Assembly: GCF_000021865.1 (NCBI RefSeq)
Contig: NC_014034.1
Location: 2,280,001-2,312,000 of the forward strand
Origin: Rhodobacter capsulatus SB 1003
Lineage (GTDB): Bacteria; Pseudomonadota; Alphaproteobacteria; Rhodobacterales; Rhodobacteraceae
Reading direction: 5' to 3'
DNA: 32,000 bases
Positions 1,100 to 27,593 of this stretch are shown here, in pieces (position 1 is the first letter of the stretch; every line of letters begins with the position of its first letter). Made by a program: the position numbers and the translations under genes. The notes under the pieces were generated by a model. The model worked only from the letters and a program-made list of their open reading frames with translations. It was not told the origin of the DNA and ran no database searches.

Positions 1100-3217
1100 T
1101 CAGGCGTTCATGTCGCGCATGAGGCGGCCGTGTTTTCGGACTTCGGTGAGGACGGCGCCGAAGGTGGTCAGGCCGCGGGCCTTGAGGGCGGGCAGCAGGC
1201 GCAGGAAGGCCTCGGCCGTGGCGACCGTGTCGCCAAGCGCGGTGTGGCGGGCTTCCTCGGGGATGGTGATGCCCAGCCGATGCGTCAGCGCGTCCAGGCT
1301 GTGGCCCTCGGCGGCGCCGAAGACCACCGCCGACAAAAGCACCGTGTCGAGCACCGGATTGTCGAAATTCTTGCCGATCAGCAATTCCTTGCGGCGCAGG
1401 AATTCCAGATCGAAGGGCGCGTTATGGGCGACCAGCACCGCGCCCTCGGCGAATTTGTGGAACCGCCGCCCGACCTCGGCGATCGCGGGCGCGGTTGCCA
1501 CCATCGCCTCGGTGATGCCGTGAACCGCCGTCGAGGCCGCCGGGATCGGCCGCCCCGGGTTCACGAGCGTGTCAAAGACCTCGCCCGCCACCCGCCGCCC
1601 GTTGACGATCCGCACCGCCGCGATCTGCACGATCTCGTCGCCGCCGGTGGGAAAGAGCCCCGTCGTCTCGGTGTCGAAGACGACGAAGGTCAGCTTGTCG
1701 AGCGGGGTTTCGGCCAGCGCGCTTTCGCCGCCCCGCCCCAGCAGATCAAAGTCATAGACCACCTGGCGCGGCACCGGACGGGGCACCGGATGGGGATCCG
1801 GGCCGATCCGGCGTGCCTCGCGCAGCGGCAGGCAGAGCCGGTGCCGCCCCTCGTGCAGCCGCTCGGGCCACAGATCGGTCGCATGGACCGAGAGCACCCG
1901 CCGCCCGGTCACCTCGGCCTGGCCCACATCCAGCGGCTCGGAGAGCCACAGCTCCAGATCGGCAATCGCCACCGCCGCGCCGCGCCATTCGAGCGCGATC
2001 AGCGCCCCCGCGCCGTCTTCAAGCACCTCCAGCCGCTTCTCGGCCCGGCCCGGGCCCAGACGGCGCACCAGATGCGCGATCAGCGCCACCATCTCGAAGC
2101 CCTCCAGCCGCAGCAGCAGGGCCGCGGTCACCGGCAGCAGATCGCCCGCCCCCTCGGCCGCGACGCGGGCCTGCACGGCGGCGCCGAAATCCGAGGCGCG
2201 GATCATCGCAAGCGGCCACCAGTCGGCCCGCATCGCCTCGTGGCGGTCGTGCAGGCTGTGGATCGCCTGCGCAAGATGGCCCGCCTCGGCCCGGGCGGCC
2301 TCGCGCAGCTGCGCGCGGGCCTGCGGATCGGCGGGCCCGTCCTCGGCGATCAGCACGCCCATCAGCGATTGCAGCGCCGCGGCCGGACGGCGGATGCGGT
2401 CGAACAGCTCGTCCATCAGCGCCTCGCGCCCGGCATGGGCGCGCAGATCGGCCGAGACATCGCGCAAGGTCAGCACATAGCCCGCCAGGCGCCGCACCTG
2501 ATGATCCTCCCCCTCCGAGATCAGCCGCATCCGCGCGGCGAGCGTGCGGCCATCGGCCACCGTCGCGCACAGAAGATCCGAGGCGGCATCGGGATCGGCC
2601 GTCGCCAGAAGCCGCGCATGGGCATGGCGGATCGGCGCCGGGTGCAGATAGTCGAAGACCCGCCGGTCGAGCCCCGGCGCATGCGCCCCGCCCAGCAGAT
2701 CGACCGCCTGACCGTTGTAAAAGACCAGGGCATGATCGGCGGTGCACAAAAGCACCCCCACCGGCACGTCCGACAGCAGCGTCTCCAGCCGGTCCTTTTC
2801 GCGGGCAAGCCGGGTGGTCTCGCGCTGCACCGCCTCGGTCAGCGCCGAGCGGGTCTCGTTCAGATGCTGCGCGATCGCCGCCGCCGCCGGGGCCAGATCG
2901 CCCAGATAGCGCCCCGCGCTTTCATCCAGCGCGCTGTCGACCGCGGTCTGGGTGCGCGCCCGGATCGAGCCCGCCAGCCGCTCGATCGGCCGCGCCAGAT
3001 TGGCGTCGAACAGCGCCCAGACCACCCCGATCAGGCCCAGGATGACCAGCCCCGCCACGGTGCCGCCGATCACGAAGCCCGAAAGCGCCTCGGGCCGGGC
3101 GAGCTTGTGAAAGCCGAAGACCAGCCCCGCGACCAGCGCCGCAAGATTGCCCATCGCCAGCGCGGCGAAGAACAGGAAGATCCGGAGGCGCAGGCTGAGC
3201 CGGGCCAGCCCCATCAC
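1100..3217 (-). CDS. Membrane sensor (2 TM, HAMP, PAS, degenerate histidine-kinase-like region) fused to a DEDDh 3'-5' exonuclease (DNA pol III epsilon / RNase T-like) domain
   Basis: 705-aa ORF. N-terminal hydrophobic helices (IFLFFAALAMGNLAALVAGLVFGF; FVIGGTVAGLVILGLIGVVWALF). The C-terminal ~197 aa carry ExoI FDTETTG, ExoII AHNAPFDLEFL and ExoIII HTALGDTVATAE (H-x4-D, i.e. DEDDh). The start (GTG ATG at 3217-3212) overlaps the stop of the upstream receiver gene. Confidence 0.85.
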   Translation of the reverse strand: MMGLARLSLRLRIFLFFAALAMGNLAALVAGLVFGFHKLARPEALSGFVIGGTVAGLVILGLIGVVWALFDANLARPIERLAGSIRARTQTAVDSALDESAGRYLGDLAPAAAAIAQHLNETRSALTEAVQRETTRLAREKDRLETLLSDVPVGVLLCTADHALVFYNGQAVDLLGGAHAPGLDRRVFDYLHPAPIRHAHARLLATADPDAASDLLCATVADGRTLAARMRLISEGEDHQVRRLAGYVLTLRDVSADLRAHAGREALMDELFDRIRRPAAALQSLMGVLIAEDGPADPQARAQLREAARAEAGHLAQAIHSLHDRHEAMRADWWPLAMIRASDFGAAVQARVAAEGAGDLLPVTAALLLRLEGFEMVALIAHLVRRLGPGRAEKRLEVLEDGAGALIALEWRGAAVAIADLELWLSEPLDVGQAEVTGRRVLSVHATDLWPERLHEGRHRLCLPLREARRIGPDPHPVPRPVPRQVVYDFDLLGRGGESALAETPLDKLTFVVFDTETTGLFPTGGDEIVQIAAVRIVNGRRVAGEVFDTLVNPGRPIPAASTAVHGITEAMVATAPAIAEVGRRFHKFAEGAVLVAHNAPFDLEFLRRKELLIGKNFDNPVLDTVLLSAVVFGAAEGHSLDALTHRLGITIPEEARHTALGDTVATAEAFLRLLPALKARGLTTFGAVLTEVRKHGRLMRDMNA

Positions 3218-3609
3218 GCCCCCTCCGGGTCCAGCAGCCGGTGCAATTCGTCGCGCAGCTCCTTCAGCTCGAAGGGTTTGGCGATGAACCCGTCGGCGCC
3301 AAGCGCCAGCGCCTTGCGCCGCTCCAGCGCCGAGCCGCGCGCCGTCATCATCACGATCCGCACCCCGGCCAGCGCGCCATCGGCCCGGACCTGCTGGCAG
3401 ATCTCGTAGCCCGAGACCTCGGGCAGCATCACGTCGAGCAGCACCAGATCGGGGCGCTCGGCGCGGATGCGCTCGACCGCGCCCAGCCCGGTGGCCAGCC
3501 GCGCATGATCCAGCCCCTCGCGGCCCAGAAGATAATCAAGCGCAATGGCGATGTTGTCCTCGTCCTCGACGATCAGCACGCGCGGCCTGCCGCCGCTTTC
3601 CCCGGTCAT
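3214..3609 (-). CDS. Single-domain CheY-like response regulator receiver
   Basis: ORF 3214..3687 trimmed to ATG 3609 (MTGESGG), which is preceded by GGAGGA. An alternative ATG at 3663 lies 1 nt after the upstream stop. Receiver motifs: acidic pocket VEDEDN, phospho-acceptor LLDVMLP, MMTARG Thr, AKPF Lys. There is no output domain. Confidence 0.85.
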   Translation of the reverse strand: MTGESGGRPRVLIVEDEDNIAIALDYLLGREGLDHARLATGLGAVERIRAERPDLVLLDVMLPEVSGYEICQQVRADGALAGVRIVMMTARGSALERRKALALGADGFIAKPFELKELRDELHRLLDPEGA

Positions 3610-3664
3610 TCCGTCCTCCCGCGCGGGGGCCATCTCTGCCCGCCGCCTCTCCGCCCGCTGCATG

Positions 3665-5491
3665 TCAGCCCACCACGGCCTTGCCATGACCCAGCGCCGA
3701 TTGCATCGTGCGCACCACCACGAAAGCGTCGCGCAGATGCGCGCGTTCGAAATCGCTCAGATCCGAGGGCGCGAGGAAATTGTCCGGCGCCCGCCCGGAG
3801 CGGATCAGCCGGGCCTGGTTTTCCAGCCGCGTCGTCGCGATCAGGTCATAGGCCTCGATCAGATCGCGCGCCTCGCCGGGGGCGATCGTCCCGGCCTCCT
3901 CGGCGGCCTTCAGCCGGGCGCGGGTATTGGCGAGACCAAGCCGCCCGCGCAGCGCCTGCACCCGCGCCAGATCGATCACCGGCACCACCCCGTTCATCTT
4001 CAGATCGATGTGGTTGCGGTGCTCGCCCGAGCGGATCGTGGCAAAGCCGCGCAAGAGGCCCAGAGGCGGCGTGTGCTTGAGCGCATTGCCCAGCATATGC
4101 GCGATGAAGATCGGGCTTTGCGCCGCCAGCCGCAGGGTTTCTTCCTGCAGCGCGGTGAAGAGATCGGCGCCAGTGCCGCCGATCGGGCGCAGATCGAACA
4201 TCACCGAGGCCAGCATCTGCGCCTCGGGGTTCGGCGTGTCGATCCAGTCGTGGAAATAGCGCCGCCAGACCCCGAGCGGCTGGCACCAGCGCGCGGCCGT
4301 GGCCATCATCTCGCCCGGGCAATGCACGTAACCGCAGGCGTCAAGCCCGTCGCAGACGATCTTCGCCAAAGCGCGGAAATACTCCATGTCTTCGGGCTTT
4401 GCCGCATCATCCAAAATCAGGCAATTGTCCTGATCGGACACGCCAGTCTGTTCCTGCCGCCCCTGAGAGCCGCAGGCGAGCCAGAGATAGGGCACCGGCG
4501 GCGGCCCGAGATCGCGTTCGGCCATCACCAGAAGCCTGCGCGTCACCGCATCGGCGATGTCGGTGATCAGCCGCGTCACCACGTCATGGGCGTGATGCGC
4601 GCCGACAAGCTGCACCAGCAGCTGCGGGATCCGCGCGGTGACCGCGGCCATCTCGGCCAGGGTCTCGGCCGAGACCACGTCGCGAATGAGCACCGCCGCC
4701 GAGACCGCCTGAAACCGCGTCAGATCGGTCTGGGTGATCATGCCGACGAAACGCCCCGCCTCGGTGATCGGCAGATGGCCGATGCGCCGCTCCAGCATGA
4801 TATGCAGGATGTCGGAGCCGAGCGCGGTGGGCGGCAGGCTGACCGGATCCGCCGTCATCACCGCCGCCACCGGGGTTTCGGGCGCTTGCCCCTCGGCCAG
4901 GATCTTGTTCGACAGATCGCGCTGGGTGACGATGCCCAAAAGCGTCCCGTCCGCCGCGACGACGCCGAGCGAGGAAACATGCGCCGCGCGCATCTGCTGC
5001 GCCGCCGCGATCGCGGGGGTGTCGGGCGCGCAGGCAAGCGGCTTGCGCGCGATCAGATCGGCCACTTTCTGCGTCGCGATCTCGGTCGAGACCTTCTCGC
5101 CGCGCTTCCTGTTGAAGAAGCGCTCGAACGCCGGATAGGTCTCGATCAGCCGCTTGAAGCTGGGGGTGGGCAGCACAAGGCAGACCGTCTGCGCCGTCGC
5201 CCGCGCCTGGGTCGCGGCCAGCCCGTCGCGCAGAAGACCGCGCTCGCCAAAGGAATTGCGCGGACCCAGAAGCGAGACCAGCCCGCCATTGCCGTCGGTG
5301 ATTTCCACCGCGCCCTGCTTGATCAGGTAAAGCCCGCCCAGGGGCGTCTGATGCACATAGATCAGCGCCTGGGCGCAAAATTCCATGCGGCGAAAGGAAC
5401 GGGCCACCTCGGCCAGCTCGTCACGCGGCAGGGTATCATAGGGATGGACGGTTTCCAGAAAGGCAAGGACGGCCTGACGGTCGGGTTCCAT
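3665..5491 (-). CDS. cNMP-binding + tandem CBS + DUF294 (GlnD-like, Pol-beta fold) putative nucleotidyltransferase with DUF294_C substrate-binding domain
   Basis: ORF 3665..5752 trimmed to ATG 5491 (MEPDRQ, SD GGAGAG); the longer version would overlap actP. Contains a cNMP-binding-like segment (LYLIKQGAVEI...FGERGLL), two CBS repeats (VSSLGVV..GIVTQRDL; IGHLPIT..GMITQTDL), the NTase signature CGSQGRQEQTGVSDQDN and a helical C-terminal domain. Confidence 0.9.
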   Translation of the reverse strand: MEPDRQAVLAFLETVHPYDTLPRDELAEVARSFRRMEFCAQALIYVHQTPLGGLYLIKQGAVEITDGNGGLVSLLGPRNSFGERGLLRDGLAATQARATAQTVCLVLPTPSFKRLIETYPAFERFFNRKRGEKVSTEIATQKVADLIARKPLACAPDTPAIAAAQQMRAAHVSSLGVVAADGTLLGIVTQRDLSNKILAEGQAPETPVAAVMTADPVSLPPTALGSDILHIMLERRIGHLPITEAGRFVGMITQTDLTRFQAVSAAVLIRDVVSAETLAEMAAVTARIPQLLVQLVGAHHAHDVVTRLITDIADAVTRRLLVMAERDLGPPPVPYLWLACGSQGRQEQTGVSDQDNCLILDDAAKPEDMEYFRALAKIVCDGLDACGYVHCPGEMMATAARWCQPLGVWRRYFHDWIDTPNPEAQMLASVMFDLRPIGGTGADLFTALQEETLRLAAQSPIFIAHMLGNALKHTPPLGLLRGFATIRSGEHRNHIDLKMNGVVPVIDLARVQALRGRLGLANTRARLKAAEEAGTIAPGEARDLIEAYDLIATTRLENQARLIRSGRAPDNFLAPSDLSDFERAHLRDAFVVVRTMQSALGHGKAVVG

Positions 5492-5561: not shown

Positions 5562-7298
5562 TCAATGCGCCGAGGCTTCGGCGGCGCCGATGCCGGTTTC
5601 CGAACGGATCTCCTGCGCCAGATAGCCGTCCCGGTCCTGATCGCCGCGCCGGCTCTTGTCGGTGATCGAAAAGAGCCAGATCCCCGCAAAGCCCAGCACC
5701 ATCGAGAAGAGCGCGGGCGAGGTATAGGGGAAGGGCGCCGAGCCCTTTTCAAAGCCGAGCGTGGCCTCCCAGACCGAGGGCGAGATCACGGTCAGCGCCA
5801 CCGAGCTGATCAGCCCGAGGGAACCGCCGATCACCGCGCCGCGCGTCGTCATGCCCTTCCACAGAAGCGACATGAAGAGCACCGGGAAGTTCGCCGAAGC
5901 GGCGATGGCAAAGGCCAGCGACACCATGAAGGCGATGTTCTGCTTTTCAAACGCCAGACCCAGAACCACCGCGACGATGCCAAGGCAGATCGTGGTGATG
6001 CGCGAGACCCGCAGCTCCGAGGCGCTGTCGGCCTTGCCGTTCTTGAACACGGTCGAATAAAGGTCATGCGACACCGCCGAGGCGCCCGAGAGCGTCAGAC
6101 CGGCGACCACGGCCAGGATCGTGGCAAAGGCCACCGCCGAGATGAAGCCGAGGAAGATGTTGCCGCCCACCGCCTGCGCCAGATGGATCGCCGCCATGTT
6201 GTTGCCGCCCACCAGCGTCAGCGCGCCCTTGGCATCATAGCTGACCAGACCCGGGTTGGTCAGGACATAGACGATGGCGCCAAAGCCGATGATGAAGGTC
6301 AGCATGTAGAAATAGCCGATCCAGACCGTCGCCCACATCACCGACTTGCGCGCTTCCTTGGCCGAAGGCACGGTGAAGAAGCGCATCAGGATATGCGGCA
6401 GACCGGCGGTGCCGAACATCAGCGCCATGCCGAAGGAAATCGCCGAGATCGGGTCTTTCACGAAGGTGCCCGGCCCCATGATCGAGATCCCCGCAGCCGC
6501 CGCCTCCTCGGGGGTCTTGCCCGCCGCCAGCGCCAGATCGGTCTTCACCTTGACCGAGTCCGCAAACAGGCTTTCCAGGCTGAAGCCGTAATGCACCATC
6601 ACCATCAGCGCCATGAAGCTGGCCCCGCCCAGCAGCAGACAGGCCTTGATGATCTGCACCCAGGTCGTCGCGGTCATGCCGCCAAACAGCACATAGACCA
6701 TCATCAGGATGCCGACGACGATCACCGCATAAAGATATTCCAGCCCGAACAGCAGCTTGATCAGCTGCCCCGCGCCCACCATCTGGGCGATCAGGTAAAA
6801 GGCCACGACGACCAGCGTCGACATCGCCGCAAAGACCCGCACCGGCGTCTGCGCGAACGGGAAGGCCGCCACATCGGCGAAGGTGAACTTGCCAAGGTTG
6901 CGCAGCCGCTCGGCCATCAGGAAGGTCAGGATCGGCCAGCCGACCAGAAAGCCGATCGAATAGATCAGCCCGTCATAGCCCTGCAGCATCACCGCCGCCG
7001 AAATCCCCAGAAAGGACGCCGCCGACATGTAATCGCCCGCGATCGCCAGCCCGTTCTGAAAGCCGGTGATGCCGCCGCCCGCGGTGTAGAAATCGGCCGC
7101 CGATTTCGTCCGCCCGGCCGCCCATTTCGTGATGAACAGCGTCGCCACCACGAAAAAGCCGAACATCGCGATCGCGGTCCAGTTCGTGGGCTGCTTTTGC
7201 ACCGCCCCCTCGATCGCGCCCGCCGCAAGGGCAAGGCCGGGCGTCAGGCTCAGCGCCGAGACCGCCGCAAGGCGGGTGAAGGTCGTGACCGGGCTCAT
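5562..7298 (-). CDS. actP: Cation/acetate symporter ActP (SSS family)
   Basis: 578-aa multi-TM protein. The N-terminal signal-like segment followed by [31 protein letters not shown] matches the ActP N-terminus pattern; [30 protein letters not shown] is a typical SSS motif. Its start overlaps the yjcH stop (ATGA). Confidence 0.93.
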
Positions 7299-7603
7299 TT
7301 CAGCACCTCGCGCTTCACCTGGGCGGTCAGCTCGTCATAGTCGCTGTTGGCGCGGAAGACGTAGATCGCCGTCACCACGATGGTGAACAGGATCACCCCG
7401 AAGCCGACCGGGATCCCCCAGGTCATCACCCCCTCGCCCATCGGCACGGCCAGAAGGTCCTTGCGAAAGGCGATGACGGTGATGAAGCCGTAATAGACCA
7501 GCAGCATCGCGATGGTGAGCAGCCAGCCGAACCGCAAGCGCTTTGTCTTCAGCGCGTGGTAGGCCGGGCTCCTGGCGATGCGTTCCAGCATCGTGTCTTG
7601 CAT
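7295..7603 (-). CDS. yjcH: DUF485 inner-membrane protein (YjcH), ActP partner
   Basis: 102 aa with two TM helices ([22 protein letters not shown]; [21 protein letters not shown]). It sits immediately upstream of, and overlaps, actP. Strong SD GAGGAGG. Confidence 0.9.
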
Positions 7604-7837: not shown

Positions 7838-9808
<1,971 letters not shown>

Positions 9809-9879
9809 GAAATCCTCCTGTGTCGGCGACCAAGGCCACCAGATGCCGCGGCACATCCGCGGCAGCTCTCCCGAGAGGC

Positions 9880-9953
9880 ATTGTAAACTGATTGTGTATC
9901 TTCCCGTAAACCCTTTTTTTGCCATGACAAAAATGTAAACGAATTTACGGAAA
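9880..9953 (-). promoter_or_regulatory. Candidate acs promoter with repeated GTAAA(C/T) motifs and nested palindromes
   Basis: An AT-rich island in an otherwise GC-rich genome. On the acs sense strand: TTTACG-N19-TACAAT (the -10 lies at 9880-9885). GTAAA-CGAA-TTTAC palindrome at 9935-9948. TTCCCGTAAA (9901-9910) is inverted relative to TTTACGGAA (9944-9952). TTTTTG-N6-CAAAAA lies between them. Confidence 0.4.
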
Positions 9954-10108
9954 CCAGATCCGGCCTGTAAATTAAATATCAAGGCGATTCAGCGCCTGAG
10001 GCATCTTGCGCCGATCGCAGGCCCGCCCCGGCCGCCGCCGGGCCTGCCCGAAAAACACGCCCAGGTTGCAGACCCTTCCGTCAGACCGGCGCCGGGGGGG
10101 ACAGGACC

Positions 10109-11215
<1,107 letters not shown>

Positions 11216-11219
<4 letters not shown>

Positions 11220-12838
11220 GGCGCCACCTCCGGCGCGGTCACGGGGGCGACGGCGGGCACGACGACGGACTGCGGCGGCACCAGCGCGCGGGCGGTCTGC
11301 TGCATGTAGCCCAGCACCGGGGCGGCCTTGAGCGAGAGCAGCACCATAAGCCCGATCAGCGCCACCACCGGGGCGATTTCCAGCGCCAGCACCCGCGGCG
11401 GCGGCGCATCGGCGGCCCAGAAGCTTTGCACGCCGACCCGCACCAGACCGATCAACGTCGCCAGCCCCGCGCCCAGCAGCAGCGCCGCAAAGATCCAGTG
11501 CAGCGCAGCGCTTGCCGGGCCCGCCGCCAGAAGCCCCTGCAACATCCCGAGCTTGCCCAGAAACCCCGCCAGCGGCGGCAGCCCCGCCAGCGCCAGCGCA
11601 CAGGCGCCAAAGGACAGGCCCAGCACCGTCAGCGTGCCCGGGATCGCCAGCCCGGCCCCGGGCGCGGCCTCTTCCTCGCGCTCGTCAAGACCGTAGGCAT
11701 CGGCGGTCAGCGCCAGAAGCCCGGCAATGCCCCCCTCCTCGCGGCTCATCGGCTCGATCAGCAGGAACAGCGCGCTGGTCGCAAGGGTCGAATTGAGCAG
11801 GTAAAACAGCGCCGCCGCCAGGATCGCGCCGTCCGCCCCCGCCAGCACGACCCCCGCCGCGGTCAGGATCGTGCCCGAGGAGACCAGCACCAGATGCGCC
11901 GCGATCCGGCCCAGCCCCTGCGCCGCCAGAATGCCGATGACGCCAAAGAGGATCGTCGCCATGCCGCCCGCGATCAGCACCGGGGCGCCAAAGCCCGCCG
12001 AGGCCCCCGCCCCCGCGCCAAACAGCAGAAAGGAGAGCCGCAAGATCACATAGACGCCGACCTTGGTCATGATCGCGAAGATCGCCGCCACCGGCGCGGC
12101 GCTGGCCATATAGGCGGTGGGCAGCCAGAAGGACAAAGGCCAGATCCCGGCCTTGATTAGAAAGGCGAGCCCCATCAGCGCCGCCCCGGCCTGAAACAGC
12201 GCCCGCCGCCCCTCGGGCAGATCGGGCACAAGCCCCGCCAGCTGCGCCATGTTCAGCGTGCCGCTGGCGCCGTAGATCAGGCTGACCCCGATCAGGAACA
12301 GCGCCGATCCGGTCAGGTTGACGGCGATGTAATGCAGCCCCGCGCGCACCCGCAGCTGCCCGCCGCCATGCAGCAACAACCCGTAGGAGGCCGCCAGCAG
12401 CAGCTCGAAGAAGACGAAGAGGTTGAACAGATCGCCGGTCAGAAAGGCGCCGTTCAGCCCCATCAGCAGGAACTGGAACAGGCTGTGGAAATGCGGCCCC
12501 TGCCGGTGCCAGCCCGCCGCCGCATAGACCAGCGCGGGCAAAGCCAGCAGCCCGGTCAGCACCAGCATCAGCGCCGAAAGCCGGTCGTTCACCAAAACGA
12601 TGCCCCAGGGCGCGACCCAGTCGCCCAGCCGGTAAAGCCCCGCCTCGGCCCCGCCCGGCCCCTGCGCCTTGGCCCGCGACAAAAGCTCGAGCGCGCAGAC
12701 CAGCGTCGCGAAGGCCGAGACCAGGCTGATCGCCAGTTTCGCGCGGCGCTGCCGGTCGTCATAGATCAGCATCAAGGCCCCGGCAAAGAACGGGATCAGG
12801 ATCGGCGCGATGATCAGATGTTCGGGCGCAGGGATCAT
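11216..12838 (-). CDS. mrpD: Monovalent cation/H+ antiporter subunit D (MrpD/PhaD, NuoN/ND2-like)
   Basis: 540-aa polytopic protein with proton-pumping-subunit motifs (FLTGDLFNLFVFFELLLAASYGLL; WLPTAYMASAAPVAAIFA). Confidence 0.92.
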
Positions 12839-13182
12839 GCCTCGGGCTCCTTGCCGTCGACATGGTCATTGCCGGTCAGCCCCCGCGCCGCGATCAGCAC
12901 GACCAGAAACAGCGCCGTCGCGGCAAAGCCGATGACGATCGCCGTCAGGACCAGCGCCTGCGGCAGCGGATCGGCATAGGCGGTCGGATCGATGAACCCG
13001 CCGCGCGGCATGATCGGCGGCACCCCCACCATCAGCCGCCCCATCGCGAAGATGAACAGATTGACCGCATAGGACAAAAGGCAAAGTCCGACGATCACCT
13101 GAAACGTGCGCGGGCGCAGCAGCAGCCAGACCCCCGAGGCGGCCAGAATCCCGATCGCGGCAGAAAGAACGATTTCCATCAC
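12835..13182 (-). CDS. mrpC: Monovalent cation/H+ antiporter subunit C (MrpC/PhaC, NuoK-like)
   Basis: 115 aa, 3 TM helices. ADPLPQALVLTAIVIGFA is typical of MnhC/NuoK. Confidence 0.9.
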   Translation of the reverse strand: MMEIVLSAAIGILAASGVWLLLRPRTFQVIVGLCLLSYAVNLFIFAMGRLMVGVPPIMPRGGFIDPTAYADPLPQALVLTAIVIGFAATALFLVVLIAARGLTGNDHVDGKEPEA

Positions 13183-16067
13183 GCGGCCTCCCGTTCCTTT
13201 TGCGCGGCGCGGTCACGCTCGCGCAGGCGGGCGATGCGCAGCGACTGGTGCGCGAGCGCAATCAGCATCAGCACGGTCACCCCCAGCACCAGCGCAAAGA
13301 CCCCGGCATCGAAGATCAGCGCCGTCGCCGCCGGAACCTGCCCGATCAGCGGCAGATCGACATACCGCGCATGCGCGGTCAGGAACGGATGGCCGAAGAC
13401 AAAGGCGCCCAGCCCCGTGCCCCCCGCGATCAACAGCCCCACCCCCATCCAGCGGATCGGCAGCACGGTCAGCCGCGCCTCGACCCAGCGCAGGTCATGG
13501 CCCAGATATTGCAGCAAAATCGCGATCGACACCGTCACCCCGGCGGAAAAGCCGCCGCCCGGCAGGTCATGGCCGCGAAAGAACAGGATCGCCGCCAGCA
13601 CGATCAGCACCGGGAACATCCAGCGCATGATCACCGAGGGCACCAAAAGCGCATGCGCCAGCGTCGGATCGCGCAGCCCGGCCTCTTCCTCGGTGCGGGT
13701 GGTGCTTTCGGGCGCGGGGCGGAAGCGGCGCAGCAGCGCAAAGACGGTGATGCCGACGATCGCCAGAACGGTGATTTCGCCAAAGGTGTCGAAGGCGCGG
13801 AAATCCACCAGGATCACGTTGACGACATTGGTGCCGCCGCCCTCGTGATAGGCGTTGCGCAGGAACCAGTCGCCGACATTGGGGATCAGCGGCCAGGTCA
13901 TCATCACATGGGCGACGGCGGCCAGACCGATGCCGACGGTCCCCGCGATGACGAAATCGCGCGCCCGGCGCAGCCGTGCGGGCAAAAGCCGATCGGCGGC
14001 GATTTCCTCGCGCCGTTTCGGCAGCCAGCGCAGGCCCAGCAGCAACAGCACGGTGGTGACGATCTCGACCAGCAGCTGCGTCACCGCCAGATCGGGCGCC
14101 GACAGCCAGGCAAAGGTCAGGCAGGTCACCGCCCCCGCACCGCCAAGCAGGATCACCGCGGCGAAGCGGTGGTATTTCGCCAGCGCCGCCGCCCCCAGGG
14201 CACAGGCCGCCCCCGCCGCCCACATCGCCGCAAAGGCCGGGTTCAGCGGCACCGAAAGCGGATCTGCCGCGGGCGCCAGCACGCCCCAGAGCGGCACCGC
14301 CGCCGCCGCCAGCGCCAGAAGCACGATCAGCCGCAGCTGCGGTTGCAGCCGTTCCGTCCCGAAAAGCCGCAGCCCCAGCCGCGGCAAGGTCCAGGTCAAA
14401 AGGAACATCGTGCGCTCGAAAAGCTTCTGCGCCCGCAGCCGGTGCAAGAGCGGCGGCCCCTCGGGCCCGCGCGCGATCGCGGCGTGAAACAGCGCATGCA
14501 GCCCCACCCCCGCCACCAGCGCGACGCAGCTCATCGCGAGCGGCAGCGTCAGCCCGTGCCACAGCGCGATGTCGGTATAGGGCAGATCCGGCCCCAGCAC
14601 CGAAACCGCCGCCAGATGCAGCACCGGGCCTAGCGTCAGACCGGGCAGGATGCCGACAAGAAGACAGATCAGCACCAGCGCCTCGACCGGGCGGCGCATC
14701 AGCGCGGGCGGCTCGTGCGGGCTGCGCGGCAGGTCGGTGGCGACGGGGCCAAAGAAGACGCTGGCGATGAAACGCAGCGAATAGGCGACGGAAAAGGCCC
14801 CCGCCAGCACCGCCCAATAGGGCAGCGCATTGTCCAGCCAGCTGCCGTTGTTCCAATCCGCCGCGGCGGCAAAGAACATCTCCTTGGACAAAAAGCCGTT
14901 GAGCAGCGGCACCCCCGCCATCGCAGCCGAGGCGACGATGGCCAGGCTTGCCGTCACCGGCATCGCGTGGCGCAGCCCGCCCAGACGGCGCATGTCGCGG
15001 GTGCCGGTCTCGTGGTCGATGATCCCCGCCGCCATGAACAGCGAGGCCTTGAAGACGGCGTGATTGAGCAGATGAAAGATCGCCGCCAGAATGGCGCCAT
15101 CGCTGCCGATCCCCGCCAGCGCGGTGATCAGCCCCAGGTGGCTGATCGTCGAATAGGCCAGCAACCCCTTGAGATCATGTCGAAAGATCGCAAGGAACGC
15201 GCCCAGGACCAGGGTTGCCATGCCGGTCCCGGTGACCAGATGGAACCACAGATCGGTCTGCCCCAGCACCGGCGAGAAGCGCACGAGCAGGAACACCCCC
15301 GCCTTCACCATCGTCGCCGAATGCAGAAAGGCCGAGACCGGCGTCGGCGCCGCCATCGCGCCGGGCAGCCAGAAATGAAACGGCATCTGCGCCGATTTGG
15401 TGAAACAGCCGATCAGAAACAGCCCCAGCACCAGCGGATAAAGCGGATGCGCCCGCACCAGATCGCCCGAAGCCAGAACCCGGTCCAGATCATGGCTGCC
15501 GACGATCTGCCCCAGAAGGATCATCGCCAGCAGCAGGCACAGCCCCCCCGCCCCGGTGACGATCAGCGCCATCCGTGCCCCGTCCCGCGCCGCCTGCCCC
15601 TGATGCCAATAGCCGATCAAGAGGAAGGACAGGATCGAGGTCAGCTCCCAGAACACCACCAGCATCAGGATGTTGCCCGACAGCACCACGCCGACCATGG
15701 CCCCGGTGAAGGCCATCAGAAAGGCGTAAAACCGCGGCACCGGATCGGTTTTCGACAGGTAGTAGCGCGCATAGATCAGCACCAGACTGCCGATGCCGAA
15801 GATCAGCGAGACGAAGAGCCAGACGAAACCGTCCATGCGGAAGCTCAGATCCAGCCCGAGCGCGGGCACCCAGCCGATCTGGCCGCGCACCACCTGCCCC
15901 GCGCCGATCGCCCCGTGCAACAGCGCCAGCACGACGCCCCCCGCCGCCAGAAACAGCCCCGACACCCAGGCCGCCGCGTCATGCGCGCGCGGCGACATCG
16001 TGCTTGTCGCCAAAGCCGCCGCAAAGGGCAGCGCCACAAGGATCAGCAGCAGGTTCTCTTCGATCAT
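13179..16067 (-). CDS. mrpA: Fused MrpA/MrpB (PhaAB-type) antiporter subunit
   Basis: ORF 13179..16196 trimmed to the ATG at 16067 (MIEENLLLILVALPF). 962 aa: a NuoL/ND5-like N-terminal part (WELTSILSFLLIGYWH; HSATMVKAGVFLL) plus a C-terminal MrpB-like extension (GGGFSAGV motif). Confidence 0.9.
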   Translation of the reverse strand: MIEENLLLILVALPFAAALATSTMSPRAHDAAAWVSGLFLAAGGVVLALLHGAIGAGQVVRGQIGWVPALGLDLSFRMDGFVWLFVSLIFGIGSLVLIYARYYLSKTDPVPRFYAFLMAFTGAMVGVVLSGNILMLVVFWELTSILSFLLIGYWHQGQAARDGARMALIVTGAGGLCLLLAMILLGQIVGSHDLDRVLASGDLVRAHPLYPLVLGLFLIGCFTKSAQMPFHFWLPGAMAAPTPVSAFLHSATMVKAGVFLLVRFSPVLGQTDLWFHLVTGTGMATLVLGAFLAIFRHDLKGLLAYSTISHLGLITALAGIGSDGAILAAIFHLLNHAVFKASLFMAAGIIDHETGTRDMRRLGGLRHAMPVTASLAIVASAAMAGVPLLNGFLSKEMFFAAAADWNNGSWLDNALPYWAVLAGAFSVAYSLRFIASVFFGPVATDLPRSPHEPPALMRRPVEALVLICLLVGILPGLTLGPVLHLAAVSVLGPDLPYTDIALWHGLTLPLAMSCVALVAGVGLHALFHAAIARGPEGPPLLHRLRAQKLFERTMFLLTWTLPRLGLRLFGTERLQPQLRLIVLLALAAAAVPLWGVLAPAADPLSVPLNPAFAAMWAAGAACALGAAALAKYHRFAAVILLGGAGAVTCLTFAWLSAPDLAVTQLLVEIVTTVLLLLGLRWLPKRREEIAADRLLPARLRRARDFVIAGTVGIGLAAVAHVMMTWPLIPNVGDWFLRNAYHEGGGTNVVNVILVDFRAFDTFGEITVLAIVGITVFALLRRFRPAPESTTRTEEEAGLRDPTLAHALLVPSVIMRWMFPVLIVLAAILFFRGHDLPGGGFSAGVTVSIAILLQYLGHDLRWVEARLTVLPIRWMGVGLLIAGGTGLGAFVFGHPFLTAHARYVDLPLIGQVPAATALIFDAGVFALVLGVTVLMLIALAHQSLRIARLRERDRAAQKEREAA

Positions 16068-16191
16068 GCGCCCGCAGCTGTCCTTTCCGGGTTTGAAATC
16101 ATGGAGGAGCCCGTCGCGACACCGGCCCCGGCGGTCCGCGCAAGCAGGCTGCCGCGGGGCCGGGCCCCGGACGTTGGCAGGGCATATCTGT

Positions 16192-16221
16192 CTCATAAAG
16201 GGGTTGTTTACGCCATTTCAA
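16192..16221 (-). promoter_or_regulatory. Candidate sigma70-type promoter of the mrp/pha operon
   Basis: On the minus strand: TTGAAA-N18-TATGAG, in the only AT-rich patch of the divergent mrpA/sbcD spacer. This would give a 5' UTR of ~120 nt containing a GC-rich imperfect hairpin. Confidence 0.3.
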
Positions 16222-16363: not shown

Positions 16364-17581
16364 ATGCGCATCCTGCACACCGCCGACTGGCATATCGGAC
16401 AGACCCTGAACGGCTGGTCGCGCGAGGCCGAGCACCGCGCCTTCCTGGCCGATCTGGGCGAAATCCTGCTGGCGGAACAGGTGGATGCGCTGCTGGTGGC
16501 GGGGGATGTGTTTGACGGGCTCAACCCCTCGGGCGAGGCGCAGCGGCTGCTTTACGCGGCGCTGGCGGGCTATGTCCGGGCCAATCCGCGGCTGCAGATC
16601 GTGCTGACATCGGGCAATCACGACCCGGCGCAGCGGCTGGAAGCCCCCGAGGCGGTGCTGCGCGAGCTGGGCGTGCATGTCCTTGGCACGCTGAGCCGCG
16701 GCCCCGGGGGGATGGATCTTGACCGCCATCTGATCCCGCTGCGCGACCGGGCCGGGCAGATCCGCGCGCAGGTTCTGGCGCTGCCCTTCCTGCGTCAGGC
16801 CGATCTGCCGGGGCTGCGCCTGGGCGCCGAGGAGGGGACCGAGGGCGCCGTCACCGCCGCGCTGCGGGCGCTGCTGGCCGAGACGGTCGCGCGCGCCGCA
16901 GCGATCGCGGGCACGCTGCCGCTGATCGCGATGGCGCATCTGACCTGCGCGGGCGGGCTGGAAAGCGCGGGCGCCGAGCGGCGCATCCTGATCGGCGGCG
17001 ATCATGCCGTGCCCCCCGATGTCTTTCCCCCCGCGCTGGCCCATGTCGCGCTCGGTCACCTGCACAGGCCGCAATCGCTCGACGGCGGGCGGGTGCGCTA
17101 TTCCGGCGCGCCCTTTCCGCTTTCGGCCAGCGAGATCGGCTATGACCACGGCGTCACGCTGCTTGATCTGGCAGGCGGCGCCGCGCCGCGCCATATCCCG
17201 CTGCCGCGTCCGGTGCCGATGCTGCGCCTGCCCGCGCAGGGAACCGCCCCCCTGCCCGAGATCCTCGCCGCGCTCGACCGGCTCGCCCTGCCCGACCGCC
17301 CCCGCGCCGAGGGCCCCTTCCTCTATCTCGCGCTGCGGGCCGACCGCCCGGTGACCGAGATCACCGCGGCCCTTGATGCCGCGCTCGAGGCGTTGCCCCT
17401 GCGGCTGGCCGGGCTGACGATCACCCGCCCCGAAACCGCCCGCCCCGCGGCCGCCCCGCCGCAGGATCTGACCCGGACCACGCCCGAGGCGCTGTTTGCC
17501 GCGGCCTTTCGCGATCTGCACGGCACCGAGCCCGAGACCCGCCATCTGAGCGCCTTCCGCGACGCGCTGTCCGAGGTCTGA
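16364..17581 (+). CDS. sbcD: Exonuclease SbcD (Mre11-type nuclease subunit)
   Basis: MRILHTADWHIG, VAGDVFD, TSGNHD, AMAHL and ALGHLH: the calcineurin-like phosphoesterase motifs I-V of SbcD/Mre11. Confidence 0.93.
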   Translation: MRILHTADWHIGQTLNGWSREAEHRAFLADLGEILLAEQVDALLVAGDVFDGLNPSGEAQRLLYAALAGYVRANPRLQIVLTSGNHDPAQRLEAPEAVLRELGVHVLGTLSRGPGGMDLDRHLIPLRDRAGQIRAQVLALPFLRQADLPGLRLGAEEGTEGAVTAALRALLAETVARAAAIAGTLPLIAMAHLTCAGGLESAGAERRILIGGDHAVPPDVFPPALAHVALGHLHRPQSLDGGRVRYSGAPFPLSASEIGYDHGVTLLDLAGGAAPRHIPLPRPVPMLRLPAQGTAPLPEILAALDRLALPDRPRAEGPFLYLALRADRPVTEITAALDAALEALPLRLAGLTITRPETARPAAAPPQDLTRTTPEALFAAAFRDLHGTEPETRHLSAFRDALSEV

Positions 17582-17585
17582 GCCC

Positions 17586-20500
17586 ATGCGCATCCTGTCG
17601 ATTTCCGGGCAGAACATCGCCAGCCTCGCGGCGCCCTTCCGCATCGATTTCACCACCGCGCCGCTGGCGGGCGCGGGGCTTTTCGCGATCACCGGGGAAA
17701 CCGGGGCGGGCAAATCCTCGATCCTCGATGCAATGTGCCTCGCGCTTTACGGCGATGCGCCGCGGCTTTCGGCGGGGGCGCGGTCCGACAAGGTGCCCGA
17801 TGCCGCGGGCGAGGAGATCAGCGCCGCCGACAGCCGCGCGATCTTGCGGCGGGGCGCGGCGACGGGCTGGGCCGAGGTGCGGTTCGCCGGCCGCGACGGG
17901 CTCGAGTATATCGCGCGCTGGCAGGCGCGGCGGGCCCGCGACAAGGTCGAGGGCAAGCTGCAAACGGTGGCGCGCAGCCTGGCCCGGGCCGAGGACGGGC
18001 AGGTTCTGGCGGCGCAGACCCAGGCGGTCAGCGAACAGGTCGCGGCGCTGACCGGCCTGTCCTACGAGGAATTCCGCCGCACCGTCCTTCTGGCGCAGGG
18101 CGATTTCGACGCCTTCTTGCGCGCCGACACCGGGGAACGCGCGACGCTTCTGGAAAAGGTCACCGGAACAGGGCTTTACCGGGCGGTCTCGATCCGGGTC
18201 TATGAACGCACCGAGATGGCCCGGGCGGAACATGCGCAGCTTCTGGCCCGCGCGGCCGAGCATCGGCTGCTGGACGACGCGGCCCGCGCGGCGCTGACCG
18301 AAGAGATCGCCGCCCGGACCGCGGCGACGGCGGCGGCAACGGCGGAACGGGCCGGGCTGAGCGAGGCGCTGGCGCGGCACCGCCGCCATGCAGAGGCGGT
18401 CCGGCAGGTGCAGGCCGCCGCCGCCGCGCTGGCCGGGGCCGAGGCGCTCCAGGCCGAAGCGGGTCCGGCCCGAGCGCAGCTTGACCGGCTGGAGCGGGCG
18501 GCGCCGCTGCATCTGCCCTGGCAAGCCGCCGCCGAGGCCCGCGCCCGTCTGGACGCGGCCCGAAGCGGCGCCGAAGCGGCCGCGGCTTCCCGCAGCCTGG
18601 CAGCGCAGGCGCTTGCGACACGCGCAGATGCCGCCGCCCGGGCGACGGCGGCGGGGACGGAAACGGAAGAGGCCTTCAAGGCCTTCGGCCGGATCTGGGA
18701 CCGCGCCGCCGCGCTGGATGCGCAGATCGCGACTGCGGCGACCGAGGCGGAAGCCGCCCGGACCCGCGCCGCCGAGACCGCGCGCGCCGCCGCCGGGATC
18801 CGCCGTGCCGAAGCCGATCTGGCCGCGGCCGAGACCCGAGCGCAGCAGGCGCGTCAGGCCGCCGAGGCGCGGCTGGCAGAGCTTGCCGCGCAGGCGCCGC
18901 TTGCCGATGACTGGCCGCAGCTGCGCCGCGATCTGGCCGATCATCGCGCGGCCTGCGCGGCGCAAGCCGCGGCCGCGACCGCGGCACAGGCGGCGCAGGA
19001 CCGGGCGCAGGCGCTGGCGCAGGAGGCCCGCGCAGCCGCCGCGGCCGAGGCCCGTGATCAGGCCGCCGACAGCGCCCTGGCGAAAGCGGCGGCGGCGCTG
19101 CAGCAGGCGCTTGCGCCGCTTGAAGCCGCGCATCCCCCCGCCCGGACCGCCGATCTGGCGCGGATCGAAACCGATCTGGCCGAGCTGACCCGGGCGCTGC
19201 GCGATGGCGCCGAAGCCGCGGCTCTGGGCGCGGCGGCGCAGCGGGCGGCCACCGCGGCCGCCACGGAGGCCGCCTTGGCACGGGCGCAGGAAAGCGCTGC
19301 CAAACAAGACCTTGACCGCGCCGAGACGCAGATCGCCGCGCTGACGGCGCCGCTTGAACAGGCCGATCTGGCGCTTTCCGACGCCGCCCGCAGCCTGCGG
19401 GCGCAGCTGAGCGCGGGCAGCCCCTGCCCGGTCTGCGGCGCGCTTGAGCATCCGACCCCGGCCGAGGCGGGGCTGGCGCATCTGGCCGAGCGGCTGCGCG
19501 CCGATCAAGCCGCCGCCCGCGGCGCGGCACAGGCGGCGCGCGACGCGCTGACCGCCGCGCAGGGCGCCCGCGCGACGGCCGAGGCCCGCGGCACACAGGC
19601 GGCCGAGGATCAGCGCCGCGCCCAAACCCGCGCCGAAGCCGCCCGCGCGGCCTGGGGCGACACACAGCCGCGCGTCTCGGCCCGGCCGCTGGCCCCCGCG
19701 CTGCCCGGGACCCCGGACCCGACCGCCCTTGCCGCGGCGCAGGACCGGCTTTGCGCCCTGCAAACCGCCGAAGCCGCCGCTCAGGCCGAGATTTCGGCGC
19801 TGCGCACCCGCCTGACCGAGGCCGAGCGCGACCGCGAGCGCCTGCGCCGCGCGCTTTTGGCGCATCGCGGCACGCGCGAGCGGCTGGCCGTGCAGCAGGC
19901 CGAAACCGCGCAGGAGGCAGCCCTGGCCGAGGCCCGCCGGACCGAGGCCGCGGCCCGGCGCGACGGGCTGGCGCTGGCGCTGGCCCCGGCGCTGGCACGG
20001 GCGGGCGAAGACGACCCGGCCGCGCCCGGGCTGGCCGAACGGCTTGCCGCGACGGTCTCGGCGGTCGGGGCGGCGCGGACGGGGCTGCAGGCGGCGCAGG
20101 AGGCGCTGAGCGCGCTGGCCCCGCAACTGGCCGCGGCGCGACGGGACAGCGAGACGGCGACGGCGCAGGCCCAAAGCGCGGCGCAGGCGGCGCGGGACCG
20201 GGACGGCGCATGGGCGGCGCTGCGCGCCGAACGGGCGCCGCTTCTGGACGGGCAGCCCACCGCCCTGCATCGCAGCCGCTTCAACGACCAGCGGCTGGCG
20301 GCGCAACGGGCGCAACAGGCCGCCGCCGCCGATCTGGCCACGGCGCAGGCGGCGCTGGCCGCGGCCGAAGCCCGCGCGGCGGAAACCGCCCGCGCGGCCT
20401 CCGAGGCCGCCACCGCGCAGCGCGCGGCCGAAGCCGACCTTGCCGCCGCGCTGGAGGCCGCCGCGATGAGCGCGGCAGAGCTTGCGGCGCTCATCGCCCT

Positions 20501-21302
20501 GCCGCCCGGCACGGCCGAGCGCCTGCGGGCCGATCTGCGCGGGCGTGACGATGCGGTGACGGCGGCGCGCTCGGCCCTTGGCGCGCGCAAGACCGACCTG
20601 CAAGAGATTGAGGATCAAGGAAATCCCGCCGAAGACCCCGAAGCGCTTTCGGCCCGTCTTGCGGCGCTCGAGGCCGAGGCCGAGCGCCGCGCGCAAGAGA
20701 TCGGGCAGCTCTCGGCCGAGCTTGCGCGCGATGCGGCGACGCGGGCGGCGCTGGCCGGTCTGGCTGTGGAAACCGAAGCCGCGCGGGCCGAGCTGGAGGT
20801 CTGGGAGGCGGTGAACAAGGCGATCGGCGCGCGCTCGGGCGACCGCTTTGCGCGGATCGCGCAGGCGATCACGCTCGATGTGCTGGTCGAACATGCCAAC
20901 CGCCATCTGGCCGATCTGAACCCGCGCTACCGGCTGCGCCGCGCCGCCGAACTGAGCCTGCAAGTCGAGGACCGCGACATGGGCGACACCGCCCGCGCCA
21001 CCCGCAGCCTCTCGGGCGGGGAGCGATTTCTGGTCTCGCTGGCGCTGGCGCTGGCACTCTCGCAGATGGGCGGCAAGGGCACTTTCGCGGGCACCCTTTT
21101 CATCGACGAGGGCTTTGGCGCGCTGGATGCGGGCAGCCTTGATCTGGCGATCGACGCGCTCGAGACGCTGCAATCGCAGGGGCGGCAGGTCGGGGTGATC
21201 AGCCATGTCGAGGCGATGCAGGCCCGCATCGCCACCCGCATCGCCGTGCGCAAGGAGGGCGGCGGCCGGTCGAGCCTGCGCGTCGAAGGGCCCGGGGTCT
21301 GA
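17586..21302 (+). CDS. sbcC: Exonuclease SbcC (Rad50-type SMC-like ATPase)
   Basis: Walker A GETGAGKSSILDA at the N-terminus. A very long Ala/Glu/Arg-rich coiled coil with a central zinc hook, CPVCGALEHP. C-terminal signature LSGGERFLVSLALALAL and Walker B LFIDEGFGALD. The start lies 4 nt after the sbcD stop. Confidence 0.93.
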   Translation: MRILSISGQNIASLAAPFRIDFTTAPLAGAGLFAITGETGAGKSSILDAMCLALYGDAPRLSAGARSDKVPDAAGEEISAADSRAILRRGAATGWAEVRFAGRDGLEYIARWQARRARDKVEGKLQTVARSLARAEDGQVLAAQTQAVSEQVAALTGLSYEEFRRTVLLAQGDFDAFLRADTGERATLLEKVTGTGLYRAVSIRVYERTEMARAEHAQLLARAAEHRLLDDAARAALTEEIAARTAATAAATAERAGLSEALARHRRHAEAVRQVQAAAAALAGAEALQAEAGPARAQLDRLERAAPLHLPWQAAAEARARLDAARSGAEAAAASRSLAAQALATRADAAARATAAGTETEEAFKAFGRIWDRAAALDAQIATAATEAEAARTRAAETARAAAGIRRAEADLAAAETRAQQARQAAEARLAELAAQAPLADDWPQLRRDLADHRAACAAQAAAATAAQAAQDRAQALAQEARAAAAAEARDQAADSALAKAAAALQQALAPLEAAHPPARTADLARIETDLAELTRALRDGAEAAALGAAAQRAATAAATEAALARAQESAAKQDLDRAETQIAALTAPLEQADLALSDAARSLRAQLSAGSPCPVCGALEHPTPAEAGLAHLAERLRADQAAARGAAQAARDALTAAQGARATAEARGTQAAEDQRRAQTRAEAARAAWGDTQPRVSARPLAPALPGTPDPTALAAAQDRLCALQTAEAAAQAEISALRTRLTEAERDRERLRRALLAHRGTRERLAVQQAETAQEAALAEARRTEAAARRDGLALALAPALARAGEDDPAAPGLAERLAATVSAVGAARTGLQAAQEALSALAPQLAAARRDSETATAQAQSAAQAARDRDGAWAALRAERAPLLDGQPTALHRSRFNDQRLAAQRAQQAAAADLATAQAALAAAEARAAETARAASEAATAQRAAEADLAAALEAAAMSAAELAALIALPPGTAERLRADLRGRDDAVTAARSALGARKTDLQEIEDQGNPAEDPEALSARLAALEAEAERRAQEIGQLSAELARDAATRAALAGLAVETEAARAELEVWEAVNKAIGARSGDRFARIAQAITLDVLVEHANRHLADLNPRYRLRRAAELSLQVEDRDMGDTARATRSLSGGERFLVSLALALALSQMGGKGTFAGTLFIDEGFGALDAGSLDLAIDALETLQSQGRQVGVISHVEAMQARIATRIAVRKEGGGRSSLRVEGPGV

Positions 21303-21396
21303 CGCTTTTTTCCGCCGATGCGTCGGCGCCGAAACGCGGGCGGCGGCGGCGGCATGCAAGGATCGGCCAAGCCGCGCAGCAAGGAAGGAACCCGCC

Positions 21397-27574: not shown

Positions 27575-27593
27575 GCGCATTCCCCCGGGCCGC

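Follow-up and report, generated by a model that had tools for sequence, protein, structure and literature searches.

The window analyzed here is a stretch of 32,000 nt from Rhodobacter capsulatus SB 1003 (contig NC_014034.1, positions 2,280,001 to 2,312,000). A minus-strand gene at 1100..3217 encodes a predicted membrane-anchored pseudo-histidine kinase with a DEDDh exonuclease as its C-terminal domain, which we call the fusion protein. The protein has the module order of a sensor kinase, its kinase motifs are lost throughout the family, and its nuclease residues are intact. The gene directly follows one for a stand-alone receiver (REC) with intact receiver residues, in a cluster with acetate-uptake genes. 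With a probability of about 55%, we read this as a WalK/VicK-type pseudokinase scaffold that reads the phosphorylated receiver and gates a DEDDh nuclease opposing a DUF294 transferase, tuning carboxylate uptake.

An earlier note on this DNA, made from its letters alone, had proposed the layout TM-linker-PAS-DHp-CA-exonuclease, with TM for transmembrane helices. Structure prediction with AlphaFold2 (AF2), Foldseek searches and profile-profile alignment bear it out. Residues below are counted from GTG 3217, and the parts of the gene are:

1100..3217, minus strand: fusion gene, predicted membrane-anchored pseudo-histidine-kinase/DEDDh exonuclease, 705 aa counted from GTG 3217
3014..3193, minus strand: two TM helices, residues about 9-39 and 42-68 (full-length AF2 model, hydrophobic sequence)
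2813..3013, minus strand: HAMP-like helix-loop-helix and signalling helix, residues about 69-135 (model, WalK/VicK alignment; HAMP identity unconfirmed)
2453..2800, minus strand: PAS fold, residues about 140-255 (model topology; sub-threshold Pfam PAS_8, PAS_4 and PAS)
2219..2452, minus strand: DHp-like hairpin without His, residues 256-333 (AF2, Foldseek, hhalign)
2378-2404, minus strand: H-box equivalent F-D273-R-I-R276-R-P278-A-A (hhalign)
1808..2206, minus strand: CA-like (Bergerat-type) domain without ATP-binding motifs, residues 338-470 (AF2, Foldseek, hhalign)
1691..1807, minus strand: Pro-rich low-confidence linker, residues 471-509 (model; near-invariant motif inside)
1739-1768, minus strand: near-invariant linker motif R484-x-x-V-Y488-D489-F490-D-L-L, residues 484-493
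1103..1690, minus strand: DEDDh 3'-5' exonuclease domain, residues 510-705 (Pfam, fold, five catalytic residues)

The kinase-like nature of the middle region, read by eye in the earlier note as DHp-like and HATPase_c-like, is confirmed by both its fold and a profile-profile alignment. We modelled residues 256-500 with AF2 from an alignment of 31 homologues (A2). In the model (mean pLDDT 86.5), two long helices at fragment positions 2-35 and 43-78 precede an alpha/beta sandwich. Foldseek finds 275 matches to it in the PDB at E<=0.001. The top 50 are all histidine-kinase DHp+CA cores or known look-alikes, with about 210-240 aligned columns each, and matches include HK853 with RR468 (E 2e-9), DivL (4q20), LvrB, WalK/YycG, CpxA, KinB, ZraS and ChpT. 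TM-scores are near 0.4 with a large root-mean-square deviation (rmsd); these values come from a differing DHp-CA hinge angle, not from another fold.

Profiles agree with the fold. An hhalign comparison of 83 divergent family representatives with five kinases gives Prob 99.1 and P 1.4e-17 over 212 columns. The five are HK853 (a sequence identical to PDB 2c2a), EnvZ, PhoR and CpxA of Escherichia coli K-12, and a genuine kinase from locus L083, described below. The relationship emerged only with structure and with this 83-representative profile set against the five-kinase alignment. A shallow Paracoccaceae alignment against HK853 alone is not significant (E 0.18), the middle-region profile finds only noise among PDB sequences (E>0.3), and a search of PDB sequences with the whole protein finds DnaQ-like exonucleases only. 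Pfam HisKA and HATPase_c have no match at E<=1 to the fusion protein or to any of the 31 family members; the middle region of about 250 residues is covered by no Pfam model. Two distant members have sub-threshold HisKA matches (E 5e-4 and 3e-3), and their register, which sets Asp at the His position, agrees with hhalign.

The motifs that make a kinase are gone. The earlier note had Arg in place of the phospho-acceptor His, which the alignment corrects: H260 of HK853 pairs with D273. The D-R-I-R-R-P of the fusion protein corresponds to H-E-L-R-T-P of HK853; the kinase Arg and Pro survive as R276 and P278. Position 273 is Glu in 51 and Asp in 16 of the 83 representatives and His in none; R276 is kept in 81. 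The note was right that the N-box Asn and the G1 and G2 boxes are missing. N380 of HK853 aligns with R386, and Asn occurs there in 2/83. The G1 Asp (HK853 D411) is replaced by W411, and the G2 lid is deleted, with a 12-residue gap facing GTGLGL of HK853. Other positions have become near-invariant: W411 (Trp in 78/83), G413 (82/83), W424, H445 (80/83) and W450 (78/83). G413, W424, H445 and W450 line the former nucleotide pocket. Because His, N, G1 and G2 are lost family-wide and new residues are conserved, we see selection for a non-kinase role, not decay. Judged by its sequence, the middle region is a kinase-type scaffold predicted to be able neither to bind ATP nor to accept phosphate. On the same grounds the fusion protein is best described as a member of a dedicated pseudokinase family. 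This is what the earlier note had suspected, with nuclease as output; it took homologues with a functional His and ATP-binding boxes as the mark of a decayed copy, and the homologue alignment holds none with His, while the DEDDh residues are intact.

The C-terminal domain is the complete exonuclease that had been recognized in the letters. Pfam RNase_T matches residues 512-671 over the full model (1-164) with E 3.5e-40, scoring 138.7 bits where the cut-off is 24. The five DEDDh residues are all there, invariant in 40 homologues: D515 and E517 (Exo I, D-x-E), D603 (Exo II), and H658 and D663 (Exo III, H-x4-D). In Foldseek the fold matches the PolC exonuclease (9qpc, rmsd 1.9 A over 191 columns), Pol III epsilon (2gui, TMt 0.81) and DinG-exo. 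By its residues the nuclease is catalytically intact, and 3'-5' activity is predicted. NCBIfam gives exonuclease-domain matches only, all far under their equivalog cut-offs (dnaQ_proteo TIGR01406, 113.4 against 222.7; PRK05711 NF004316, 109.7 against 196).

Just before the exonuclease, the linker motif is conserved at D489 (83/83), F490 (81/83), R484 (77/83) and Y488 (76/83). The motif might belong to the nuclease fold, serve as a docking peptide or act in autoinhibition. It occurs as well in shorter exonucleases of the clade, in other architectures of it (P0335, P0364) and in the exonuclease open reading frame (ORF) of a split Roseovarius gene (P0348).

The full-length AF2 model has pLDDT 77 and pTM 0.41. 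It contains the two N-terminal TM helices proposed earlier, TM1 at 9-39 and TM2 at 42 to about 68, where the helix runs on to 90. The outside loop between them is very short and there is no periplasmic domain. A loop with a short helix (99-105) occupies about 91-107 and is followed by a helix at 108-149. Further along come the PAS fold (154-253), the DHp hairpin (255-289 and 298-333), the CA-like domain (338-470), a low-confidence linker (473-490) and the exonuclease (510-704). Searched with Foldseek, this model matches best a WalK model of full length (473 columns), VicK 4i5s with HAMP-PAS-DHp-CA (422 columns), and LOV-kinases.

The PAS-like region claimed at about 140-255 has a clear PAS fold in the model, with a five-stranded antiparallel sheet (strands 154-158, 163-167, 212-219, 225-232 and 247-253). 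It aligns inside VicK, YF1 and LOV-kinase structures when the full-length model is searched with Foldseek. PAS_8 (E 0.011), PAS_4 (E 0.048) and PAS (E 0.23) match the fusion protein, each under its Pfam cut-off, and PAS or PAS_4 matches are recorded in some homologues. The HAMP-like claim fares less evenly. Position after TM2, the motif ARPIERL and a predicted helix-loop-helix speak for it, and WalK/VicK structural alignments reach across the helix-loop-helix at 69-135. Sequence models give it no support: Pfam HAMP does not match the fusion protein even at E<=1, and hhalign against four HAMPs (EnvZ, CpxA and two from methyl-accepting chemotaxis proteins) is not significant (E 0.22 over 6 columns).

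For the start of the gene, ATG 3214, one codon past GTG 3217, lines up better with homologue starts and is the likely choice by that alignment. The overlap with the REC stop codon is 4 nt for GTG 3217 and 1 nt for ATG 3214, and the start codon is ambiguous within 3212-3217. A 100%-identical database representative (P0001) is annotated with 695 aa, 10 residues shorter, a start that would cut into the conserved N-terminal RLSLRLR.

The family is large. Searched against 1.84 billion representatives, a profile made from A2 recovers 557 clusters (50% identity) at E<=0.001. The majority have a length of about 690-730 aa with the domain at about 250-500, i.e. of the same architecture, which is kept in members down to 35% identity. 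Databases name them 'DNA polymerase III subunit epsilon', '3'-5' exonuclease' or 'PAS domain-containing protein'. We found no match to the layout of kinase-like scaffold plus DEDDh nuclease in PDB sequences, PDB folds, Pfam or NCBIfam, and no paper describing it, in agreement with the earlier note, which knew of no characterized protein of this kind. We considered stand-alone short forms of about 220-480 aa in these lineages and rejected them; they are mostly short-contig fragments, mis-called starts or a split gene. The split gene is that of Roseovarius locus L089, with 465 aa and 237 aa.

In the window, the fusion gene is the last of a minus-strand series that runs acs, DUF485, actP-type SSF symporter, cNMP-CBS-CBS-DUF294-DUF294_C, REC, fusion gene (cNMP, cyclic nucleoside monophosphate):

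7838..9982, minus strand: acetyl-CoA synthetase (acs), head of the cluster
7295-7603, minus strand: DUF485 (yjcH-like; Pfam)
5562-7298, minus strand: SSF cation/acetate symporter (actP-like; Pfam)
3665..5491, minus strand: cNMP-binding/2xCBS/DUF294 nucleotidyltransferase/DUF294_C gene (Pfam)
3214..3687, minus strand: stand-alone receiver (REC) gene, whose stop overlaps the fusion-gene start

The DUF294 ORF is open to 5752, and its likely start is a Met near 5491, past the end of actP. The DUF294 protein is a nucleotidyltransferase of the Pol-beta type. The REC protein retains the acidic pair, D85, T115 and K137. A terminator-like hairpin (1074-1061) is found 3' of the fusion-gene stop, ahead of the next gene. 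No Rfam RNA matches in the window. PADLOC, run on the fusion gene and its neighbours, gives generic DEDDh models only, weak generic partial matches for REC (E 8e-5 and 4e-4) and none for DUF294. An anti-phage defence system was rejected, as no PADLOC system-specific model matched.

We followed the neighbourhood into relatives with a contig scan using clade-specific peptide patterns, which covers Paracoccaceae, and with exact-protein look-ups for more distant contexts. DUF294 and then REC lie directly upstream of the fusion gene in 75 of 80 Paracoccaceae loci, with the REC stop overlapping the fusion-gene start; the other 5 are cut at the gene. Loci with longer flanks have an SSF symporter in all cases and acs in most. 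Across 82 REC sequences the phospho-acceptor Asp, the Thr/Ser and the Lys are each present in 82/82, and the acidic pair is kept. The symporter itself varies. The ActP and DUF485 type of the window (5562-7603) is common only to the closest Rhodobacter loci, L001-L003 (87-98% identity). In the other Paracoccaceae loci (to L080) the SSF symporter is about 30% identical and comes without DUF485; it is probably of the DUF4212-associated type seen in L089.

Among relatives with about 35% identity, the REC-then-fusion pair occurs in five contexts (L081, L083-85, L091, P0172 and P0194), with a 4-bp overlap in four. On the P0194 contig the REC and fusion genes are adjacent with a 47-nt gap. In L091 the pair adjoins a convergent DUF485-SSF-CBS-DUF294 cluster. 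In L081 (4930-10205) it lies directly downstream, on the same strand, of genes for LapG-like (Peptidase_C93) and LapD-like (LapD_MoxY_N-GGDEF-EAL) proteins, which hints at a connection to cyclic di-GMP (c-di-GMP) signalling. DEDDh oligoribonucleases degrade pGpG. Downstream of the pair in L083-85 (L083:7564-16556) come genes for a 97-aa protein, a genuine HisKA+HATPase_c kinase of 924 aa and a STAS protein, then a further REC and a CheA/CheW/CheR/CheD cluster. The 924-aa protein is a candidate for the kinase that phosphorylates the receiver.

One metagenome contig joins the partners in a single protein. P0172 (1154 aa) has PAS-DHp-CA-like-exonuclease fused to CBS-DUF294-DUF294_C and lies beside REC and DUF4212 genes. 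It would be a Rosetta-stone-type link between exonuclease and DUF294; its RNase_T match is partial (1-107 of 164), and the fusion may be an artefact of assembly or of a frameshift. DUF294 and SSF symporter genes are linked to the exonuclease gene in Paracoccaceae, Roseovarius, L091, L092 and L093, with the DUF294 fusion in P0172.

Two loci vary the sensor part. In L093, a metagenome-assembled genome of Rhodovibrio (5576-6981), a 138-aa ORF with TM and HAMP-like parts precedes a 326-aa PAS-exonuclease ORF; both DHp/CA and REC are missing. The two ORFs may be one gene broken by a frameshift. L092 (P0156) has a short DHp without the R-x-P motif, and REC is again missing. Both variants still come after DUF4212-SSF-DUF294. 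If REC docks on DHp, it should co-occur with an intact DHp and be absent where DHp is missing or degenerate, which is the pattern of L092 and L093. A conserved membrane protein (about 170 aa, unmatched in Pfam) is encoded between the DUF294 and REC/sensor genes in L089 (4729-5235), L092 (5470-5988) and L093 (5038-5562). It is 34-44% identical between the three and has no counterpart in the window.

Several known systems resemble parts of the fusion protein. The closest precedent, by analogy, would be the reading of a receiver's state by DivL of Caulobacter crescentus (PDB 4q20; Foldseek rank 5, E 8.6e-9), also a PAS-DHp-CA scaffold with the phospho-acceptor His replaced. DivL reads the phosphorylation state of the single-domain receiver DivK, reversing the usual information flow (PMC4211667). 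It differs from the fusion family in having Tyr rather than Asp/Glu at the His position. DivL has no enzymatic output and regulates the kinase CckA, whereas the fusion family carries the C-terminal DEDDh exonuclease. N, G1 and G2 are also wholly lost in the fusion family, where Trp replaces the G1 Asp and the lid is missing.

WalK/VicK-type kinases (4i5s; WalK model 9a5d) and HK853 (2c2a, 3dge) share with the fusion family, whose linker is HAMP-like only, the module order TM, HAMP, PAS, DHp, CA, the H-box Arg and Pro, and an adjacent, translationally coupled receiver gene. Unlike them, the fusion family is without the His, the ATP motifs and a Pfam HisKA/HATPase_c match, and it adds the nuclease. 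The partner receiver of the fusion protein, in contrast to those of WalK/VicK, has no DNA-binding output domain. NifL (9qq6), the histidine-kinase-related domain of plant phytochromes (phytochrome A, 8isi) and ChpT (4fpp)/Spo0B likewise reuse a DHp/GHKL-like fold for protein-protein signalling, and the first two and ChpT are among the Foldseek matches. None has a nuclease; NifL still binds nucleotide, and ChpT and Spo0B keep the phosphotransfer His.

DnaQ-like DEDDh exonucleases (PolC 2p1j/9qpc, Pol III epsilon 1j53/2gui, ExoX, RNase T) share the fold and the five DEDDh residues. The fusion exonuclease differs in lying outside any polymerase and in being anchored to a signalling scaffold in the membrane. 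Its clade has an N-terminal R-x-x-[VF]-Y-D-F-[DE]-L motif and linkage to DUF294 and symporter genes.

The same neighbourhood is found in gamma-proteobacteria, where exonuclease/DUF294 pairs lie by actP or DUF4212-SSF (Pseudomonas aeruginosa PA3232-PA3235, P. putida PP_0353/PP_0354, Shewanella Sama_1525). For these pairs, compared here by published description only, the papers speak of an exonuclease-domain protein and mention neither a sensor part nor a receiver. They are acetate/propionate-induced, MxtR/ErdR-dependent and cofit with the symporter (PMC9765439; 10.64898/2026.09.07.749794; 10.1101/072470). PA3232-PA3235 are induced about 16-fold on propionate (PMC9765439). Dependence on MxtR/ErdR is strongest for PP_0353 (exonuclease) and PP_0354 (cNMP-CBS-NTase), whose phenotypes are mild (10.64898/2026.09.07.749794). 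In the authors' speculation, expression of a DUF4212 symporter requires the RNase T-domain protein that is cofit with it (10.1101/072470). The published findings could fit a role in expressing the symporter or in its function.

We propose that the fusion protein would act as a dimeric, membrane-anchored scaffold (TM hairpin, HAMP-like linker, PAS, DHp and CA-like domain) with the DEDDh exonuclease as output. The co-translated receiver would get its phosphate from elsewhere: from a separate kinase, such as the operons of some relatives encode, or possibly, to speculate, from acetyl phosphate. It would dock on the His-less DHp, with an acidic residue at the former His position. Docking, together with signals from the TM helices, linker and PAS, would set the scaffold conformation and hence nuclease activity or substrate access. 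The nuclease would most likely strip 3'-terminal nucleotides added by the DUF294 transferase, be it to the 3' end of an RNA or to a small nucleotide product; this removal would tune carboxylate (acetate) uptake and assimilation. A writer/eraser pair on a 3'-terminal nucleotide is the simplest idea because the DUF294 partner is a nucleotidyltransferase. More tentatively, and with well under even odds, the His-less scaffold may read the phosphorylated receiver and switch the exonuclease as 'eraser' against a cNMP/CBS-regulated DUF294 'writer', acting on RNA 3' nucleotides or a small nucleotide signal and so controlling symporter output. The symporter itself may be what the TM hairpin senses.

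Receiver docking, nuclease gating and the nuclease substrate are parts of this proposal that we infer, and several points count against it. The case for a REC-DHp contact consists of gene adjacency and REC/DHp co-variation, and the substrate is put forward wholly by inference. No histidine kinase that could serve as REC phosphodonor is encoded in the window. DUF294 and symporter neighbours are absent in some distant members (L081, L083), so a link to carboxylate uptake is not universal. The low pTM of the full-length model makes its inter-domain geometry uninformative. The HAMP label of residues 69-135 is drawn from topology, position and ARPIERL and is not demonstrated.

Control of the nuclease might instead lie with the TM helices, linker and PAS alone, with DHp and the CA-like domain as a dimerization scaffold only and the receiver acting elsewhere, as a phosphate sink or a connector to another pathway. 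The PAS-exonuclease variant of L093 shows that PAS can couple directly to the nuclease without DHp/CA. The TM hairpin without a periplasmic domain also resembles intramembrane-sensing kinases that read a partner transporter, and one of these, BceS (8g3a), is among the Foldseek matches. We nevertheless think this unlikely: REC adjoins the fusion gene wherever DHp is intact and is gone where DHp is missing or degenerate, and pure dimerization does not need a conserved R276 and an acidic residue at 273. It is quite improbable, too, that the DHp keeps a His-independent phosphatase or phosphate-draining activity, so that the fusion protein would switch the receiver off and the nuclease would be constitutive. 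HisKA-type kinases dephosphorylate receivers via residues beside the His, and some EnvZ-type His mutants keep phosphatase activity. The Arg and Pro of H-E-x-R-T-P are indeed retained here. The phosphatase motif Thr/Asn at His+4 is not conserved, however (position 277 is R in 31, A in 19, Q in 9, G in 8 and T in 1 of 83), and neither is the acidic residue at His+1, as position 274 is mostly Gly.

Two further readings would leave the scaffold without a part to play. Database names, and the resemblance of the domain to PolC and epsilon exonuclease domains, could make the fusion protein a true DNA polymerase III epsilon or another DNA-repair exonuclease with an irrelevant N-terminal extension. This is very improbable given the membrane anchor, the wide miss of the NCBIfam equivalog cut-offs, the conservation of the 500-aa N-terminal part in 557 clusters, and an operon for acetate uptake and signalling. 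A recently decayed kinase, whose middle region has no selected function, would account for the failure of every sequence model to detect HisKA or HATPase_c. That is scarcely credible when the same losses occur in all 83 representatives, new residues have become conserved, the AF2 fold is confident and the architecture persists to 35% identity.

Other genes of the window lie on either side of the cluster. An ATP-binding cassette (ABC) transporter ATP-binding gene (Walker A GASGCGKST) at 1-1035 on the minus strand begins some 65 nt past the fusion gene and continues beyond the first position of the window. The unrelated neighbours are:

10109-16196, minus strand: Mrp/Pha-type multisubunit cation/proton antiporter cluster
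16364-17581, plus strand: sbcD
17586-21302, plus strand: sbcC
21205-22299, plus strand: folD
24767-27649, minus strand: methyl-accepting chemotaxis protein with HAMP
27594-28796, minus strand: periplasmic binding protein

Two-component systems are the main signalling device of bacteria, and their outputs are mostly transcription, c-di-GMP turnover, methylesterase activity and protein binding. Pseudo-histidine kinases and DEDDh nucleases are each well known; for their fusion our searches gave no precedent. If the proposed receiver-reading scaffold is right, it would be a new class of two-component output, regulated nucleolysis rather than transcription. A non-catalytic kinase core as reader with a nuclease as output would add a new wiring principle, and it would be a second, enzymatically tractable case of DivL-like reverse signalling. 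Members of the family are currently misnamed 'DNA polymerase III epsilon subunit' in public databases. The family also offers a handle on the DUF294/exonuclease genes beside acetate/carboxylate symporters, which are strongly regulated and have fitness effects in Pseudomonas and Shewanella. If the writer/eraser reading is right, the DUF294/exonuclease pair, widespread in acetate regulons of Pseudomonas, Vibrio-type and Rhodobacter-type bacteria, would acquire a function.

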